A stretch of 35,065 bases of DNA from a virus (Duplodnaviria; Heunggongvirae; Uroviricota; Caudoviricetes), in IMG/VR virus record IMGVR_UViG_2778261624_000006; one strand, written 5' to 3'. The notes beneath the pieces were generated by a model. That model did no database searches and was not told where the DNA came from. It saw only the letters and a program-made list of their open reading frames with translations. This document shows positions 3,698 to 32,135 of the stretch, in pieces; position 1 is the first letter of the stretch, and each line of letters begins with the position of its first letter. A program made the translations under genes and the position numbers.

Positions 3698-4297
3698 TCA
3701 GAACTTATAACCGACACCCACGATGAAACCGTCAGTGCGCCAGTCGCCACTGCCGGAGCCTTCATAAGCAATATCAATGGCCACGGATTCGGTCGGGTTA
3801 AACTGCACGCCAGCTCCCCACGCCAGAGACGTGTTGCTGTGGCGACCGTCATCACTTCCGGTCAGCACGTCGTGCGTTTTCCCCTTGTTGTCAGTTACGC
3901 GGAGATAATCCCCGGAGAAAGTCGACACACGGCTGTAAGCCACACCCGCCATCGCATACGCGCTGAACCATTCATTCACGCGCACAGACGGCCCCGCCAT
4001 TACGCTGAACCAGCGGTTACGAACGGAATCTTCATGCCAGCGAGTATCGCTGTAATGGGTCAGCTGGCGATTCTTGTCTCCTGCATAGCTGAATGACGTC
4101 ACCAGCCCCAGCGTATCCGTAAACTCATAACGGTATTTCACGTTAATCCCGTTCAGATCATCACTGCCGGGAACGTTGGTCCGGGCATGAAGATACCCCG
4201 CGCTCAGCGTGGACTGATGTTCAGAGGCCCATGCAGGCGCACCGGATACGGCCAGACAAATGGCTGCGGACAAAATGGCGGCACAAACTTTACGCAT
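3698..4297 (-). CDS. lom: outer membrane protein Lom (Ail/Lom family)
   Basis: 199-aa ORF with signal peptide and beta-barrel-like sequence ending in a C-terminal Phe; lies between J and stf as in lambda. Confidence 0.9.
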   Translation of the reverse strand: MRKVCAAILSAAICLAVSGAPAWASEHQSTLSAGYLHARTNVPGSDDLNGINVKYRYEFTDTLGLVTSFSYAGDKNRQLTHYSDTRWHEDSVRNRWFSVMAGPSVRVNEWFSAYAMAGVAYSRVSTFSGDYLRVTDNKGKTHDVLTGSDDGRHSNTSLAWGAGVQFNPTESVAIDIAYEGSGSGDWRTDGFIVGVGYKF

Positions 4298-23578: not shown

Positions 23579-23938
23579 ACATCCCGGTTTCTTCCACCAT
23601 CGCACCGGAAAAGCGACTATGAGGGTAACCCTGCGTCTGTCAGCACAGTAAAACCCGGTGTGCATCGTTTTTGATTATTCCCGCACACTCACGCAGAAGG
23701 AATTCCCCGTCGGGCTACGGTCATGGTTAATGCGGGAATACGGCGACGATACAGCGCAGCTAAAAGGGTAATGGACAGATAGAGCGGTTTATTTCATTCC
23801 ACAGGATTCTGAGTGCCCCCCCTCCTCCAATAGGCTGAGCATCCACCTATATAGTTTTAATTTTCATCAATCCATTTAACTATCGTTTAATTGTTGTCAC
23901 ATAGGATTCTGCCGTTTTTAACAATGCAGGATAATAAG

Positions 23939-24232
23939 ATGAAAAAAATGTTGTTTTCTGCCGCTCTGGCAATGCTTATTACAGGATGTGCTCAACAGAC
24001 GTTTACTGTTGGAAACAAACCGACAGCAGTAACACCAAAGGAAACCATCACCCATCATTTCTTCGTTTCGGGAATTGGACAGGAGAAAACTGTTGATGCA
24101 GCCAAAATTTGTGGCGGCGCAGAAAATGTTGTTAAAACAGAAACCCAGCAAACATTCGTAAATGGATTTCTCGGTTTTATTACTTTAGGCATTTATACTC
24201 CGCTGGAAGCGCGTGTGTATTGCTCACAATAA
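23939..24232 (+). CDS. bor: Bor lipoprotein (serum resistance), 97-aa reading from MKKMLF
   Basis: Lipobox LITGC; strong match to lambda Bor as recalled; opposite strand to the lysis genes as in lambda. Confidence 0.9.
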   Translation: MKKMLFSAALAMLITGCAQQTFTVGNKPTAVTPKETITHHFFVSGIGQEKTVDAAKICGGAENVVKTETQQTFVNGFLGFITLGIYTPLEARVYCSQ

Positions 24233-24263: not shown

Positions 24264-24725
24264 CTATCTGCACTGCTCATTAATATACTTCTGGGTTCCT
24301 TCCAGTTGTTTTTGCATAGTGATCAGCCTCTCTCTGAGGGTGAAATAATCCCGTTCAGCGGTGTCTGCCAGTCGGGGGGAGGCTGCATTATCCACGCCGG
24401 AGGCGGTGGTGGCTTCACGCACTGACTGACAGACTGCTTTGATGTGCAACCGACGACGACCAGCGGCAACATCATCACGCAGAGCATCATTTTCAGCTTT
24501 CGCATCAGCTAACTCCTTCGTGTATTTTGCATCGAGCGCAGCAACATCACGCTGACGCATCTGCATGTCAGTAATTGCCGCGTTCGCCAGCTTCAGTTCT
24601 CTGGCATTTTTGTCGCGCTGGGCTTTGTAGGTAATGGCGTTATCACGGTAATGATTAACAGCCCATGACAGGCAGACGATGATGCAGATAACCAGAGCGG
24701 AGATAATCGCGGTTACTCTGTTCAT
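24264..24725 (-). CDS. Rz: i-spanin Rz
   Basis: 153-aa reading from [17 protein letters not shown] matches lambda Rz; N-terminal transmembrane segment and coiled coil. Confidence 0.9.
24323..24505 (-). CDS. Rz1: o-spanin Rz1 lipoprotein, embedded in the +1 frame of Rz
   Basis: 60 aa with lipobox VVVGC and a proline-rich stretch; entirely inside Rz. Confidence 0.9.
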
Positions 24726-25219
24726 TGCTGACCCCACAAACAGATTTCACGCTCAATCTCACGACGAGTCATGAGACCTTTCCATTGCTTACCGCCAGCA
24801 TATGTCCAGCGACGTAGCTGATCACATGCGCCTTTGATATCGCCCTGGTTTATTTTGCGAAGAAGCGTCGATGTTCTGAAATTGCCAGCACCCACGTTGT
24901 AAACGAATGAGTAAAGAGCGCCGCGCATTGTTTCCGGTATATCGACTTTGATGTACGGGTTAATTTGTCTGGCGACCGTGGCAAGGTCTTTATTCAGGAG
25001 GGCTTTGCATTCTGCTTTGGTATACGTTTTACCGAGCATGATGTCTTTTCCTGTATGCCCGTGACATACAGTCCATACACCAACAATATCTTTGTATGGT
25101 ATGTAGCTGACACCTTCCAGACCATCGTTACCACTTGGGCCAGTGATTAACACTGATGCTATAGCAATTGCTCCGCCACCAATAGCAGCAGCAACGGCTT
25201 TTCGTAATGATGGAGGCAT
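24722..25219 (-). CDS. R: SAR endolysin (T4-type lysozyme, glycoside hydrolase family 24; phage 21 R-like)
   Basis: N-terminal Gly/Ala-rich signal-anchor-release segment [20 protein letters not shown]; catalytic E, D and T spacing typical of T4-type lysozyme; ATGA overlap with S. Confidence 0.9.
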
Positions 25220-25434
25220 TATTCACCTCTCGCAGCCTTGCGCTTATCTTCTTTAATCTTGAAATAAAGGTTTGTCAGGTACGTCAGCAGGCCAAATACC
25301 AGGCTACCCAGCACACCTATTGCTGCCCACTGTGAGGGCGTGACTTTATCGAGCAGCTGTAAAAACCAGTAACCGGCACTACCTGCTGAGGTGCCATAGG
25401 CGACACCCGTTGTTAACTTATCCATGGATTTCAT
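25219..25434 (-). CDS. S: pinholin S (phage 21 S-like), dual-start motif MKSMDK
   Basis: 71-aa reading with two transmembrane segments and a basic C-terminus; matches S21 as recalled; ORF track extends further 5' to 25479. Confidence 0.88.
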
Positions 25435-25560
25435 AACCCCACCTCGCAGACAAAGCGGGTGTAAATTGAGGGAATACAACGTATCGCAAAAAAGCAGAAA
25501 CGTAACAGACTCGGAGTCAGTGAATAACTCAGGTATTGGGTTATCAGCTAATATCGAGAC

Positions 25561-25592
25561 TCAAAAAATGGAAAAACCCGCTCGACGGCGGG
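25561..25592 (-). terminator. putative intrinsic terminator upstream of S on the late strand (candidate tR')
   Basis: Hairpin CCCGC-loop-GCGGG followed on the minus strand by TTTTTCCATTTTTT. Confidence 0.45.
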
Positions 25593-26023
25593 TTTAAGCT
25601 GTGTGACGAAGTAACCACTCTTAACAGCATAACCAATTTTTTACGTACGTAAACCACAAAATGATATTTGCGAGAATGCTACCGAGTATTGAAAACACCA
25701 CTACAAATACATAAGCAAATCTCAACAAATAACCAACAAATAATTTCCAGTGTTATTTTTAGCCGATTTAAATTGAACCTTCAAATTACAGAGCACTTAT
25801 AAATAACATCCGTTAATATAAATTGGCTAATAGATTTATTTTTATTCAGCCAAGATCCATGAATAGGATTCGATAGAAAAAAGTTCAGATAAAAATAGAG
25901 ATCTACTTCACAAATCAAACGAGAAACCAAAACTTACATCTTGAAATAATCACATTGATTAGATGAATATTTATCGCGCAGTGACATCATTTTTTAATAA
26001 TAGTTCAAAAAAAAGGGCTCACG

Positions 26024-27106
26024 ATGAAAAAATTAACAGTGGCAATTTCTGCTGTAGCTGCATCAGTACTGATGGCGATGTCTGCTCAGGCAGCTGAAAT
26101 TTATAATAAAGACAGTAACAAGCTGGATCTATATGGGAAAGTTAATGCCAAGCACTACTTCTCCTCTAATGATGCAGATGATGGTGATACTACTTATGCC
26201 CGTCTTGGCTTCAAAGGTGAAACCCAAATCAACGATCAACTGACTGGTTTCGGTCAGTGGGAATATGAATTCAAAGGCAACCGCGCTGAATCTCAAGGCT
26301 CCTCCAAAGACAAAACCCGTCTTGCATTTGCAGGCCTGAAATTCGGGGACTACGGCTCAATCGATTACGGCCGTAACTACGGTGTAGCATATGACATCGG
26401 TGCGTGGACTGACGTTCTGCCAGAATTCGGTGGCGATACCTGGACCCAAACAGATGTGTTCATGACTGGTCGCACCACTGGTGTTGCAACTTATCGTAAC
26501 AACGACTTCTTTGGTCTGGTTGATGGTCTGAACTTTGCTGCTCAGTATCAGGGTAAAAATGACCGCACTGACGTAACTGAAGCTAATGGTGATGGTTTCG
26601 GTTTCTCCACTACTTATGAGTATGAAGGATTCGGTGTAGGTGCAACCTATGCTAAATCTGACCGCACTAATAATCAGGTTATCTACGGTAACAACAGCCT
26701 GAATGCATCTGGTCAAAATGCTGAAGTATGGGCAGCTGGTCTGAAATATGATGCGAACAACATCTATCTGGCTACCACCTATTCTGAAACCCAGAACATG
26801 ACTGTTTTTGGTAATAACCATATTGCCAACAAAGCACAAAACTTCGAAGTAGTTGCACAATATCAGTTCGACTTCGGTCTGCGTCCGTCCGTTGCTTACC
26901 TGCAATCTAAAGGAAAAGACTTGGGTGCGTGGGGTGATCAGGACCTGGTTGAATATATTGATGTAGGTGCAACCTATTACTTCAACAAAAATATGTCCAC
27001 TTTTGTTGATTACAAAATCAACCTGATTGATAAGAGCGATTTCACGAAAGCATCTGGCGTTGCTACCGATGATATCGTTGCTGTAGGTATGGTTTACCAG
27101 TTCTAA
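26024..27106 (+). CDS. nmpC: phage-encoded general porin (OmpC/OmpF family; NmpC/Lc-like)
   Basis: 360 aa; signal peptide ending AQA; 16-strand porin signature with C-terminal YQF; sits between Q and S on the opposite strand as in DLP12 and PA-2. Confidence 0.9.
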
Positions 27107-27243
27107 TTTGATTACTAAAAGATATGTTGCGGGAGGCTTTGCCTCCCCAACATATAAGTGGCTCCCTCAAGCCACTTCCTTTAGGAGCACAACCTTGCTT
27201 CTAACTATATAAACCTTCTGTTATATATTACCCTTTATTTTTG

Positions 27244-27277
27244 GGGGCGTTGCAACGCCCCATTTTTAATAATTTTT
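27244..27277 (+). terminator. rho-independent terminator downstream of the porin gene
   Basis: GGGGCGTTGCAACGCCCC hairpin followed by ATTTTTAATAATTTTT on the plus strand. Confidence 0.6.
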
Positions 27278-27294
27278 AGTAAACAATTGGCATA

Positions 27295-27678
27295 TTAATT
27301 AGAGTTATTAACAACGATATCCATCTCTAACCGGATATCTAATGCCATTAACATCCCTTCAATTATGCCCTCAGCCTTCTGTAACCTTTTCCCGATATAA
27401 CCATCAGAGCAGCAATGCTTACCTGCCAGTGACATGAATGTCATACCGACTACATAATAATCTACTAATAAATCGTGCAAATCGCTGTTGTTCTTTTTCA
27501 GACGGGCCATGCACCCGCAAATAATCATCGCGTCATCGTCACAACATTGCGGGCGAGATTTTACTTTTGAAGTAATTAATCCCTTAAAACCGGCGGCAAT
27601 GGACGACCAGGTCACATCTTCATGATTATTAGCCGCCCACGCTCCCCAACGCTCAAGAACCATCTGAATATCACGCAT
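27295..27678 (-). CDS. quuD: late gene antiterminator Q (phage 82 / QuuD type); ORF track extends to 27693
   Basis: Cys-rich zinc-binding region ([20 protein letters not shown]); position directly before the late region; matches DLP12 QuuD as recalled. Confidence 0.85.
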
Positions 27679-27763
27679 CAACTTACTCCACAAAACTCAG
27701 ACCAGAACGCCAATTACAAGCAAAAATCAACAAAACAGTATTAGTTGATTGTTATCTCTGACT

Positions 27764-27886
27764 TCATACTCCTGCTCCTGTCAGTGTTTTGGCGTAATTC
27801 TTCAGTATTCGGTAATCGGTCAAAACAGAGCCGGGGAAACGATATAAGCGCAGACGCCCCCAGCGGTGGCGAAGAAGTTCTGCCAT
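27764..27886 (-). CDS. small hypothetical ORF (40 aa) between rusA and Q, possibly YlcG-like
   Basis: Hand-translated ORF MAELLRHRWGRLRLYRFPGSVLTDYRILKNYAKTLTGAGV; not in the ORF track because shorter than 60 aa. Confidence 0.3.
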   Translation of the reverse strand: MAELLRHRWGRLRLYRFPGSVLTDYRILKNYAKTLTGAGV

Positions 27887-27900
27887 ATTAAACTCAAACA

Positions 27901-28263
27901 TCATTCATTCCCCATTTCGGTGATGGTCAGTTCCAGCCTCCCACCTTTGGTAACAGGCATCTTCACAACGCGGTAATCAACGACCTGAGCATCATCCAGC
28001 CAGAAACCTGCTTTAGTGAGTGCGTCAAAAGCGGCTTTTTGCAGATTATCCAGGTCACGGCGACGGCGATCCGGCATGTGGCACTCAATGCGGATTTTCA
28101 CAGGCATAGCCAGGCCGATATCCAGCATTGCGTTTTTAATGATTCGGGCGACGTTATCGCGGTATGCCTGCCCCTCTGCGCTGACGTGCGTGCGCCCGCG
28201 ATTATGGCGGTAATAGCGATTATTGCTCGGAGGCCAGGGTAATGTGATGCTGTAGGTATTCAC
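27901..28263 (-). CDS. rusA: Holliday junction resolvase RusA
   Basis: 120 aa; matches E. coli RusA as recalled; nin-region position. Confidence 0.9.
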
Positions 28264-28550
28264 GCCTTAATAACCCCCTCTTTCAGCCAGATAACCTGTG
28301 TTCTCGCCATACCTTCCAGCGCGCATTCTTTTGCATATGCAGCATCGACAAAATGTGTGCGGCGGTCGATTTCGTCGTGGCAGGCAGAACATGCAATGGT
28401 GGCAATCAGGTCTGGCGGTTTGGTACCGGTGCCGCACAATCCAGTCAGCCGGATATGTGCCAGTACAGACGTTTCAGGGTTGCCATTACATACGCCAGGG
28501 ATTCTTACCTGGCATTCCCGACTACGCGCTGCTTTTCTCAAATCAGCCAT
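28260..28550 (-). CDS. ybcO: nin-region protein YbcO (DUF1364, putative nuclease), 96-aa reading from MADLRK
   Basis: Cys-rich motif [14 protein letters not shown]...CSACHDEID; the start overlaps the ninE stop (ATGGCTGA). Confidence 0.8.
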
Positions 28551-30608: not shown

Positions 30609-32135
30609 TCAAAAATAAACCTCACCATCAACCATATATTTGAGAGTACTTATCGCCTGCTGGGCGGATATTGTTTTCATTAAAGGATAGTGTTTAAAAA
30701 CAATGCCATTCATAAAATAGATATCACAGGTTTTATTATCTGTATTGATTATGATTTTTTCGAATGTTTTATAGGCAAGTGTACGACATAGCTCTCGCCC
30801 ATTTTTACTGGTTAAGTCAATAGCATGAAAATCACCAAGTGAACTCACCGCTTTACTCTTCAAAGTTTTTAATGATACAGAAGCCCTTCGTAATTCCTTA
30901 TCTAATACTCTGATTTTTTCTGCTATAGCGGTAACTTCAGGCGCAACAGATAATGCAGCAATTAAATTATTAATTTTCATGTGGAGCTCAATAATTTTCA
31001 ACTCTAAAGTTTCATTAGCATCTTTCTTGTTTTCAACTGGTTGGATTTTACTACAATTAAAAAGCAACTCATTAATGATATTATAATCAACCAAATCTCT
31101 CTTTATTGATGGCCTGTCACATCGATGCAGTCTTCTCATCGGACAAACATAATAGCCATGCAAACTTCCAGATACCGCATGAACAATCATGGTATTACCA
31201 CAAGCCTCGCACTTCATAACTGTTCGAAGTAGATTTATCAACATAGGATTTTTGCTACTATTGCTAATACCAAAAGGTGCCAACCGAATTTCCTGTACAG
31301 CGTAAAACAAATCATCTGATATGACTCTGGGATAATAGCCAGCGATTTCACTTATTCCTTTACCTCTTGCACGATATGAAGGTACGCATATACCTATCAG
31401 AGCTTTATTCGCTAATAATTTTTCAATTACAGAAGGTCCCCATGCACTTTCTTTTCCTGAGAAATTCTTTACAGCATGATCATTTAAATACTTGGCTATT
31501 GCATTCAATGAGCGCCTTTCCATCCTGAGTTTAAAAATTAGCTCAATAGTTTTCACCCTGTCGGGGTCTGGAACAAAAGCCGTTCTTTTGTCATCTAAGG
31601 AGAGCCATCTCGGACAAGACGCCGTCATAATCGTACCTGATTCCAGTGCATCCTGCCGTTTTTTCTTCCATGATAATTTAACCCGACTTGACTTTATCTC
31701 GCTTTCTTCATTTGCCCTTTGTGCTATAAGTATGGCTTTTATTAATGAATATGGCTCATTCAAAGAGTCAATATTATAGACTGTATTGTCGCAAAGAGTT
31801 ATAACATCAATACCGTGATTCAAAATCAATTTCAGACGTTCAATCGCTTCACCGACTTTTTCTCTTGAAAGTCTGTCCAGACTTTCAACTAACAATGTAG
31901 TTCCTGGCAATATATAACCATGCTCTATAGCATCTAAAAATTCCGAAAAAGCTCCTGATTGTGCATGCTTTCCTTTGAATGCACTTAATCCTAAATCTTC
32001 ATATGTTATGGTATCAAGATAATAATCACTATTTACCTTTAACCATTCAGCAATAAGTCTTCTCTGTCGGTTTAATGAGTCGCCAGACATCTGACCTGGT
32101 GATGAAAATCGCATATATGCTATGGCTTTTTTCAT
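30609..32135 (-). CDS. ybcK: large serine recombinase (resolvase-type catalytic domain, recombinase domain, zinc ribbon); YbcK-like
   Basis: N-terminal AIAYMRFSSPGQ...R motif of serine recombinases; Cys cluster CEACGNT...YYVCP...C; 508 aa, the typical large-serine-recombinase size. Confidence 0.85.
   Translation of the reverse strand: MKKAIAYMRFSSPGQMSGDSLNRQRRLIAEWLKVNSDYYLDTITYEDLGLSAFKGKHAQSGAFSEFLDAIEHGYILPGTTLLVESLDRLSREKVGEAIERLKLILNHGIDVITLCDNTVYNIDSLNEPYSLIKAILIAQRANEESEIKSSRVKLSWKKKRQDALESGTIMTASCPRWLSLDDKRTAFVPDPDRVKTIELIFKLRMERRSLNAIAKYLNDHAVKNFSGKESAWGPSVIEKLLANKALIGICVPSYRARGKGISEIAGYYPRVISDDLFYAVQEIRLAPFGISNSSKNPMLINLLRTVMKCEACGNTMIVHAVSGSLHGYYVCPMRRLHRCDRPSIKRDLVDYNIINELLFNCSKIQPVENKKDANETLELKIIELHMKINNLIAALSVAPEVTAIAEKIRVLDKELRRASVSLKTLKSKAVSSLGDFHAIDLTSKNGRELCRTLAYKTFEKIIINTDNKTCDIYFMNGIVFKHYPLMKTISAQQAISTLKYMVDGEVYF

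Follow-up and report, generated by a model that had tools for sequence, protein, structure and literature searches.

The window, by which we mean the whole stretch of 35,065 nucleotides that was analyzed, carries a lambdoid prophage region in which the late genes run on the minus strand. The Q antiterminator gene, whose product belongs to the recognised Q family (PF06530), is followed by a gap with three hairpins, by a porin gene in the opposite orientation, by an AT-rich spacer, and by the pinholin gene S, after which R and Rz come on the minus strand (Table 1). The porin is annotated as OmpC, OmpD, or NmpC in homologous phages and in DLP12. GC content was 0.27–0.33 across 25600-26000 versus 0.42–0.50 in the flanks, in agreement with the AT-rich region (25600-26023) of the original prediction. 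The order of Q, porin, and S is ordinary and very common in E. coli. The whole 2.5-kb segment shared 92–99.9% identity with many E. coli phages, it also matched the 'qsr'' segment of DLP12 that is present in phage 434B, and the Q-porin-S segment was present at a coverage of at least 80% in 2398 of the 5426 complete E. coli genomes (~44%). As for phage records, 367 matched a query containing Q and the 188-bp gap, and 356 matched a query containing the putative late promoter and terminator module (pR'/tR') in front of S.

Table 1. Features of the Q-porin-S segment, in coordinates of the window and ordered along the late (minus) strand
Feature	Position	Strand	Description and basis
Q antiterminator gene (QuuD/Q933W type, 127 aa)	27295-27678	minus	Pfam PF06530 (Q21 family), E 3.5e-53, full-length match
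Q-porin gap	188 bp, between porin and Q		three hairpins inside
Plus-strand terminator	27244-27261, to 27275	plus	GGGGCGT-TGCA-ACGCCCC, then AUUUUUAAUAAUUUUU; proposed porin transcript end
Middle hairpin	27156-27178 (about 27157-27176)	either	AAGUGGCU...AGCCACUU; no adequate U-run on either strand
Long palindrome	27155-27122, CUUUU(U) to 27117	minus	15 pairs and one bulge; proposed terminator for transcripts leaving Q
Porin gene (Lc/NmpC/OmpC-like)	26024-27106	plus	Porin_1, E 3e-153; intact
Spacer, AT-rich	590 bp, porin to S
Divergent promoter zone beside porin start	25958-26023	both	transfer from K-12
Secondary late-strand start, class II	about 25990	minus	K-12 FWD_(II)-576081 (PMC4681348), transferred via L015
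Porin start site	about 25977	plus	K-12 RVS_(I)-576094 (PMC4681348), transferred via L015
Secondary late-strand start, sigma-E-like	about 25974	minus	inferred; GAACTA-16-TCACT at 26006-25980
pR' (predicted)	25653-25626	minus	-35 TTTACG (25653-25648), 16-nt spacer, -10 TATGCT (25631-25626)
Predicted late transcript start	25619	minus	A in TAAG/AGUGG; alignment to K-12 and 933W/Sp5 start sites
Most conserved block of module	25596-25623 (-4 to +24)	minus	TAAGAGTGGTTAC invariant
tR' (predicted)	25595-25563	minus	8-pair stem 25595-25574, then UUCCAUUUUUU U-run to 25563
S (phage 21-type pinholin, dual start), first late gene	25219-25434	minus	Pfam PF04971, E 2e-35

The original prediction held the location of the late promoter to be ambiguous between a site directly after Q and the AT-rich region. 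On the basis of the sequence alone this ambiguity stands. A sigma-70 weight-matrix scan gave 7.9 bits (ranked 11th) for pR' versus 7.7 bits for the best site after Q (TTGCAA-19-TAATAT), and a consensus promoter scan recovered neither candidate at its threshold. Promoter scoring was dropped as a discriminator, since these two scores give no separation. The ambiguity does not persist once related phages and transcript maps are added. A search of the S-proximal 265 nt against phage genomes returned 356 records, approximately 280 of which, mostly from Stx phages, matched just query positions 47–129 (25654-25572 of the window). In the 933W record (Y10775), the matched stretch is annotated as 'promoter, homologous to pR'' and 'terminator, homologous to tR'', and it overlaps the end of Q. 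The minus strand of 25654-25572 was 77–78% identical to this annotated region. Specifically, TTTACG-16-TATGCT of the window aligned base for base with TTTACG-16-TATCAT of the 933W pR', and the two sequences are in register through the -35, the 16-nt spacer, the -10, the invariant TAAGAGTGGTTAC block, the hairpin stem, and the U-run.

Transcript maps of related loci allowed the putative start to be placed more exactly. The start of the pR' transcript of Sakai Sp5 was mapped by dRNA-seq, 258 nt upstream of the 3' end of StxS as determined by Term-seq (Sy et al. 2020, PMC7547250). In the 933W locus (L004), the sole fitting terminator ends at L004:1193, which puts the start at L004:936. This position is 7 nt after the TATCAT of TTTACG-16-TATCAT, the sole promoter-like match there, and the base homologous to it in the window is A 25619. 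For K-12, the TSS table of Romero et al. 2014 (PMC4681348; reference U00096.2) contains a class I start site, FWD_(I)-576452, which was seen in exponential growth without induction. The small RNA IS019 is given at 576438-576505 on the forward strand, between nmpC and essD (PMC4681348). No start site is listed in that table between 565237 and 576081, hence none in the quuD-nmpC gap (PMC4681348). Start and end sites were carried over from K-12 and Sakai to the window by alignment. The offset from U00096.2 to NC_000913.3 (U00096.3) was taken as +777 from the essD coordinates; a cross-check with sokE was approximate (773–778), which leaves an uncertainty of 1 nt in the start. With this offset, 576452 corresponds to position 3730 of the K-12 locus (L015), exactly the predicted A of TAAG/AGTGG, and the 3' end of IS019 (576505) to L015:3783, that is 25566 of the window, inside the U-run. 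The Term-seq supplements of PMC7815308 had no entries for this locus, and the transcript compendium PMC10392735 held fragmentary assemblies for it and nothing more. No late promoter or terminator is marked in the annotated Q-porin-S records that were examined (MG1655 DLP12, phage 434B, and five other phages).

The homology to 933W, the class I start and short RNA of K-12, and the lack of a listed start between quuD and nmpC together point to the S-proximal site as the position of pR'. By transfer from the K-12 orthologue, this is predicted to be a constitutive sigma-70 promoter on the late strand, upstream of the late operon. The late switch (pR' and tR') is accordingly placed by comparison, and would be found just upstream of the lysis genes, not beside Q. 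The distance from the Q stop (27295) to the -35 of pR' (25653) is 1.64 kb and includes the porin gene, that is, pR' is not immediately downstream of Q. Late transcription that starts at 25619 would skip the porin gene. This strongly favors the alternative in the original prediction in which the promoter is in the AT-rich region and the porin is bypassed, with pR' (25653-25619) at the S-proximal edge of that region.

An intrinsic terminator on the late strand ~150 bp upstream of S had also been proposed, and it is recovered here as tR' (25595-25563), 129–160 nt upstream of the S start codon, which in turn (25434) corresponds to +186 of the pR' transcript. The hairpin of tR', AAACCCGC-CGUCGA-GCGGGUUU, spans +25 to +46, and its U-run extends to +57. 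It folded at -12 to -13.9 kcal/mol, was matched in the terminator scan, and is the sole terminator before S in the window. Its homologue in 933W is the annotated tR', which has the same stem and another loop. The scan found 3 sites in 2.6 kb versus 1.7 ± 1.3 expected, and as these counts alone are not significant, support for the terminators comes from homology and conservation. Such support suggests that an intrinsic terminator is present shortly after the start and before the first late gene. In K-12, the candidate sRNA IS019 is the terminated pR' transcript of DLP12. In Sakai, the pR' RNA runs 258 nt, past the homologous first hairpin (PMC7547250), which is not a complete terminator there because the RNA reads through to +258. 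A regulatory sRNA of the StxS type, derived from pR', would be an Hfq-binding 3' fragment that is processed by RNase E and has defined mRNA targets; the 3' region of StxS is absent from the window, and an Rfam scan of 24500-28500 (E ≤ 5) returned sub-threshold terminator look-alikes alone (Trp_leader, 20.8 bits; TarB, 19.6 bits). A terminated pR' RNA of ~54 nt (IS019-like) would be present in about half of E. coli genomes.

The predicted pR' is nearly invariant in seven porin-bearing phages. Among these, 0–1 variable columns per 30 were observed in 25647-25528 versus 5–12 per 30 in 25887-25648. In distant phages (933W, mEp460_4F5, PhiR55_1, and SfII), similarity starts near the -35 and ends directly after the U-run, and the flanks on either side of the module are unrelated. 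The most conserved block (-4 to +24) is invariant across the window, DLP12, 933W, mEp460_4F5, PhiR55_1, and SfII, with their Q proteins 42–88% identical, and TAAGAGTGGTTAC was found once in the window, at 25611-25623. This invariant block is a candidate site for Q loading and for a sigma-dependent pause. By eye, the stretch from +3 to +11 (UGGUUACUU) weakly resembles an extended -10, and no clear -10-like pause element was recognisable. The Q21-type binding element had one chance-level match elsewhere in the window and none at the module. An 11-nt direct repeat (AAGAGTGGTTA / AAAATTGGTTA, 18-nt spacing) lies near the promoter and is not conserved in 933W.

The Q protein of the window is 85–88% identical to those of PhiR55_1 and ev087, 42% to that of SfII, and 29% to Q21. 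Against Q933W, identity is 78% over residues 1–120, and the two proteins diverge fully after ...RLEMD. The conserved core of Q stops at this codon 120, the 7-aa tail is lineage-specific, and the tails past it differ in every lineage compared. On the one hand, SfII retains the module although its Q is 42% identical. On the other hand, the module was absent, when looked for, from 12 ev087-type phages despite a Q that is 88% identical, so the type of Q does not strictly predict this target.

The cluster of three hairpins that had been anticipated after Q was found in the 188-bp gap, within a few bases of where it was expected, and it includes the 15-bp-stem palindrome after the porin stop (27122-27155, 15 pairs and one bulge). 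This palindrome folded at -22.7/-23.3 kcal/mol with z of about -6.3/-6.7, and none of 200 shuffles folded as well. The sequence next to it on the plus strand, AAGUGGC, contains no U-run, and its variation in the seven phages is confined to bulge and loop positions. The hairpin at 27244-27261 (-13.9 kcal/mol) was the sole plus-strand match in the terminator scan; its minus-strand continuation, CAAAAAUAAAG, lacks a U-run. In the seven phages its stem is invariant, and all substitutions are in the loop. The middle hairpin (-11.8 to -14 kcal/mol, z -2.1 to -2.9), whose stem is cut to 6 pairs by an AG>CT change in two phages, may be part of the porin 3' UTR. On this structural and comparative evidence, the hairpins after Q are best read as convergent terminators for porin and Q, and the palindrome with its U-run (27155-27117) most likely ends transcripts leaving Q and would protect the porin from antisense transcription.

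At the other end of the porin gene, transcription of the K-12 porin starts 46 nt before the start codon, and 26007-25888 contained 0–2 variable columns per 30 in the seven phages. Transcripts that leave this divergent promoter zone on the late strand must still pass tR'. The porin gene, which has a promoter and a terminator of its own, forms a cargo cassette in reverse orientation between the Q core and pR'. It is self-contained and of variable presence among relatives, as is characteristic of a moron or lysogenic-conversion cassette.

Very probably, this locus has a standard Q-dependent late switch of the Q933W/QuuD (DLP12) type, with the target 1.64 kb downstream of the Q gene. The constitutive sigma-70 promoter (25653-25626, minus strand) would start RNA at ~25619. 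Without Q, the polymerase would stop at +25 to +57, giving an RNA of ~50–55 nt that is the presumed counterpart of K-12 IS019. After induction, Q would act in trans by loading on the polymerase at pR', probably via the invariant block, and the Q-modified polymerase would then read past tR' and transcribe S, R, Rz, and the genes for head and tail. Within this scheme, we infer the Q binding site, the pause element, Q-dependent read-through, and the efficiency of the terminator in vivo.

It is very unlikely that the late genes lack a single controlling promoter and that expression of the lysis genes depends chiefly on the late-strand promoters close to the porin start (~25974, sigma-E-type; ~25990, class II), with 25595-25563 as nothing more than an attenuator of their transcripts and Q in a minor role. 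The DLP12 literature describes RpoE control of the lysis cassette, and one later paper (PMC7918800) defines a promoter fragment from -121 to +650, counted from the RpoE-dependent start that it takes from Rueggeberg 2015. The '-121' forward primer of this paper maps to 26096 of the window, which puts the +1 of the reporter fragment near 25974 on the minus strand. A match to GAACTA-16-TCACT is found at 26006-25980, the promoter stretch is highly conserved, and the class II site of K-12, FWD_(II)-576081, maps to ~25990 (PMC4681348). However, these promoters are located upstream of pR' and tR', where they would add to the Q switch and not replace it, and the class I start, the category with the strongest evidence, is the pR' site (PMC4681348). 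Moreover, the module is kept in 933W, SfII, and PhiR55_1, all of which are without the porin-proximal sequence, and the sigma-E start site is derived indirectly from this primer.

The initial textbook expectation was that pR' would directly follow Q and that the palindrome would serve as tR', as the canonical layouts of lambda, 21, and 933W have pR' immediately after Q; it was rejected on homology and start-site data. In such an arrangement, which we regard as highly improbable, TTGCAA-19-TAATAT (27255-27225) would be pR', the palindrome with CUUUU (27155-27117) would be tR', and the late transcript would read antisense through the porin and the downstream terminator into S. The gap does contain this promoter-like match of 7.7 bits and a very stable palindrome with a short U-run on the late strand, and in the ev087 group a closely related Q is followed, at ~100 nt, by a terminator. 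Yet the 188-bp gap is without homology to any annotated pR', and TAAGAGTGGTTAC is located elsewhere (25611-25623). The spacer of the candidate promoter is 19 nt, and its -35 falls in a hairpin loop, the place where the gap varies most (TTGCAA, TTGAGA, TGGAAA, TTGAAA). In K-12, the quuD-nmpC gap is without a listed start and the class I site is at another location (PMC4681348). Of the two alternatives in the original prediction, the one with the promoter beside Q and a late transcript antisense through the porin is not supported. Finally, it is scarcely credible that 25653-25563 is mainly a small-RNA gene (IS019-like, cf. StxS) that has a regulatory function independent of late control and whose position before S is incidental: K-12 does have a discrete short RNA in the candidate sRNA IS019 (PMC4681348), and processing of the pR' transcript of 933W/Sp5 gives rise to StxS, a regulator that binds Hfq (PMC7547250), but an sRNA is compatible with the pR'/tR' role, both being present in Stx phages, StxS originates in the 3' portion of a 258-nt RNA, which the window lacks, and no Rfam family was above threshold.

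With the Q-dependent switch placed upstream of S, relatives that lack the porin were compared by what stands between Q and the module. PhiR55_1 has Q, one reverse ORF (148 aa), the module, and late genes, and SfII has Q, two reverse ORFs, the module, and S. In mEp460_4F5, a reverse ORF is followed by the module and late genes, with Q not located in the stretch examined. No Pfam match was obtained for the reverse ORFs of these three phages. The same slot contains nothing in 933W and Blc (lipocalin) in ev087. These gene orders suggest that the slot between the Q core and pR' repeatedly took up reverse-oriented cargo and that the porin would be one instance of this. We give roughly even chances to the broader proposal that Q genes of the QuuD/Q933W type recurrently acquired reverse-oriented, self-terminated cargo (porin, lipocalin, unknown ORFs) at the junction past codon 120 and that the ~54-nt pR' RNA is possibly regulatory like StxS. 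If this is true, cargo in the slot would be shielded from late transcription while cargo after tR' (e.g., stx) would be induced, and a unit that is usually treated as contiguous, namely Q and its cognate pR', would be split.

The explicit recognition of this Q-pR' cargo slot is the sole mildly new point of the analysis. The late start is already in the K-12 literature as IS019, the cassette type is well known, and the current understanding of Q antitermination is unchanged. In QuuD/DLP12-type prophages, pR' and tR' should be annotated upstream of S (essD) and not after Q, and porin expression in lysogens would be free of head-on late transcription. The position of cargo relative to pR'/tR' would predict its induction in the lytic cycle, which bears on toxin and virulence genes in related Stx phages.

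Among known systems, K-12 DLP12 (quuD-nmpC-essD) has the same gene order as the window. The K-12 nmpC is disrupted by IS5, whereas the porin of the window is intact, and 17 nt of the S 5' UTR of the window (25493-25477) are missing from K-12. The pR'/tR' module of the 434B/DLP12 copy is identical to that of the window, and phage 434B, in which Q, the late promoter, and the lysis region were replaced by the DLP12 segment, has been grown and sequenced, which indicates a working late module. Phage 21 shares with the window the PF06530 Q family and lysis genes of the S21 pinholin and SAR endolysin type. Its pR' transcript is likewise very short, with a terminator hairpin within the first ~50 nt. 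In contrast, its Q binding repeat (ATTGAGCA/AATGAGCA) is absent from the window, its pR' follows the Q stop at a distance of 7 nt, and S is preceded by tRNA genes. The porin of the window is also linked to lc of phage PA-2 (reportedly described by Blasband et al. 1986) and to the lambdoid moron genes of lysogenic conversion, as an OmpC-like porin on the opposite strand between Q and S that has its own start site and terminator and an AT-rich region adjoining it.

The closest comparison for the switch itself is with 933W and Sakai Sp5, in which the -35 TTTACG, the 16-nt spacer, the TAT..T -10, the start A, TAAGAGTGGTTAC, and the AACCCGC/GCGGGTT hairpin with its U-run all align with the window. 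In these phages the promoter is constitutive and a short RNA is present in lysogens (PMC7547250). In 933W, Q continues for 24 residues past ...RLEMD, the -35 of pR' overlaps its last codons, and Q and pR' are contiguous, whereas in the window the Q tail is replaced after codon 120 and the porin cassette separates Q from pR'. In addition, S of 933W comes after a further terminator at +258 (the StxS 3' end), tRNA genes, and stx, whereas the window has the first hairpin alone.

Phages of the ev087 type (12 records in all) encode a Q antiterminator 88% identical to that of the window, yet they lack the pR' module, i.e., the late promoter pR' and the terminator tR' that lie just upstream of the holin gene S in the window. 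Past an StxS-like terminator, their gene order continues with a reverse Blc lipocalin gene and then three forward ORFs.

Coordinates of features in the late regions of the window, of 933W (locus L004) and of ev087-type phages (L009, LR597644, phage Lambda_ev087)
Feature	Location	Strand	Position or context
17-nt insertion/deletion polymorphism, CTGCTTTTTTGCGATA-like	window 25493-25477	minus	S 5' UTR
Direct repeat AAGAGTGGTTA / AAAATTGGTTA, 18 nt apart	window 25612-25640	minus	spans -10 and start site
Divergent promoter zone, tightly conserved	window 25958-26023		by porin start
Hairpin annotated as putative tR' in 933W record	L004 959-984		+24 to +49 of mapped pR' transcript
Second terminator, 933W	L004 1166-1193		+258 of pR' transcript
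StxS-like terminator, GCCAGCCTCCCCAAAGGCTGG + T8	ev087-type phages		~100 nt after Q, in place of pR' module
Second terminator-like hairpin	ev087-type phages		85 nt upstream of S
ev087-type stretches concerned	L009 485-640 and 3373-3541		

In Stx phages, the first hairpin of the pR' transcript appears to be leaky, since the transcript mapped in Sakai, the StxS precursor, runs on to end at the second terminator (PMC7547250); leakiness of the first hairpin is not discussed in that paper. The direct repeat at pR' could be a Q binding repeat of the DLP12 lineage, but neither 933W nor SfII conserves it. The 17-nt stretch in the S 5' UTR is carried by the window, 2G7b, Lambda_4C10, and PhiR29_1, and is missing from DLP12/434B, PhiR26_1, and PhiR70_1. 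According to the predicted fold, its U-run would sit in a hairpin loop and form no terminator.

Start sites transferred from K-12 (PMC4681348) place the porin start at ~25977 (+) and a class II start on the late strand at ~25990 (-). The same zone holds a sigma-E-like match (GAACTA-16-TCACT) with a predicted start near 25974 (-), which is consistent with the '-121' fragment definition of the DLP12 lysis promoter (PMC7918800).

Elsewhere in the prophage, the early/nin-side region contains a 508-aa ORF (30609-32135, -) whose N-terminus (MKKAIAYMRFSSPGQ...) looks like that of a large serine recombinase. Downstream of Rz, on the strand opposite to the late genes, a Bor/Iss-like lipoprotein ORF (23891-24232, +) encodes a lipobox-containing signal peptide (...LITGCAQQ...); lambda, phage 21, and 434B likewise carry bor at this position.
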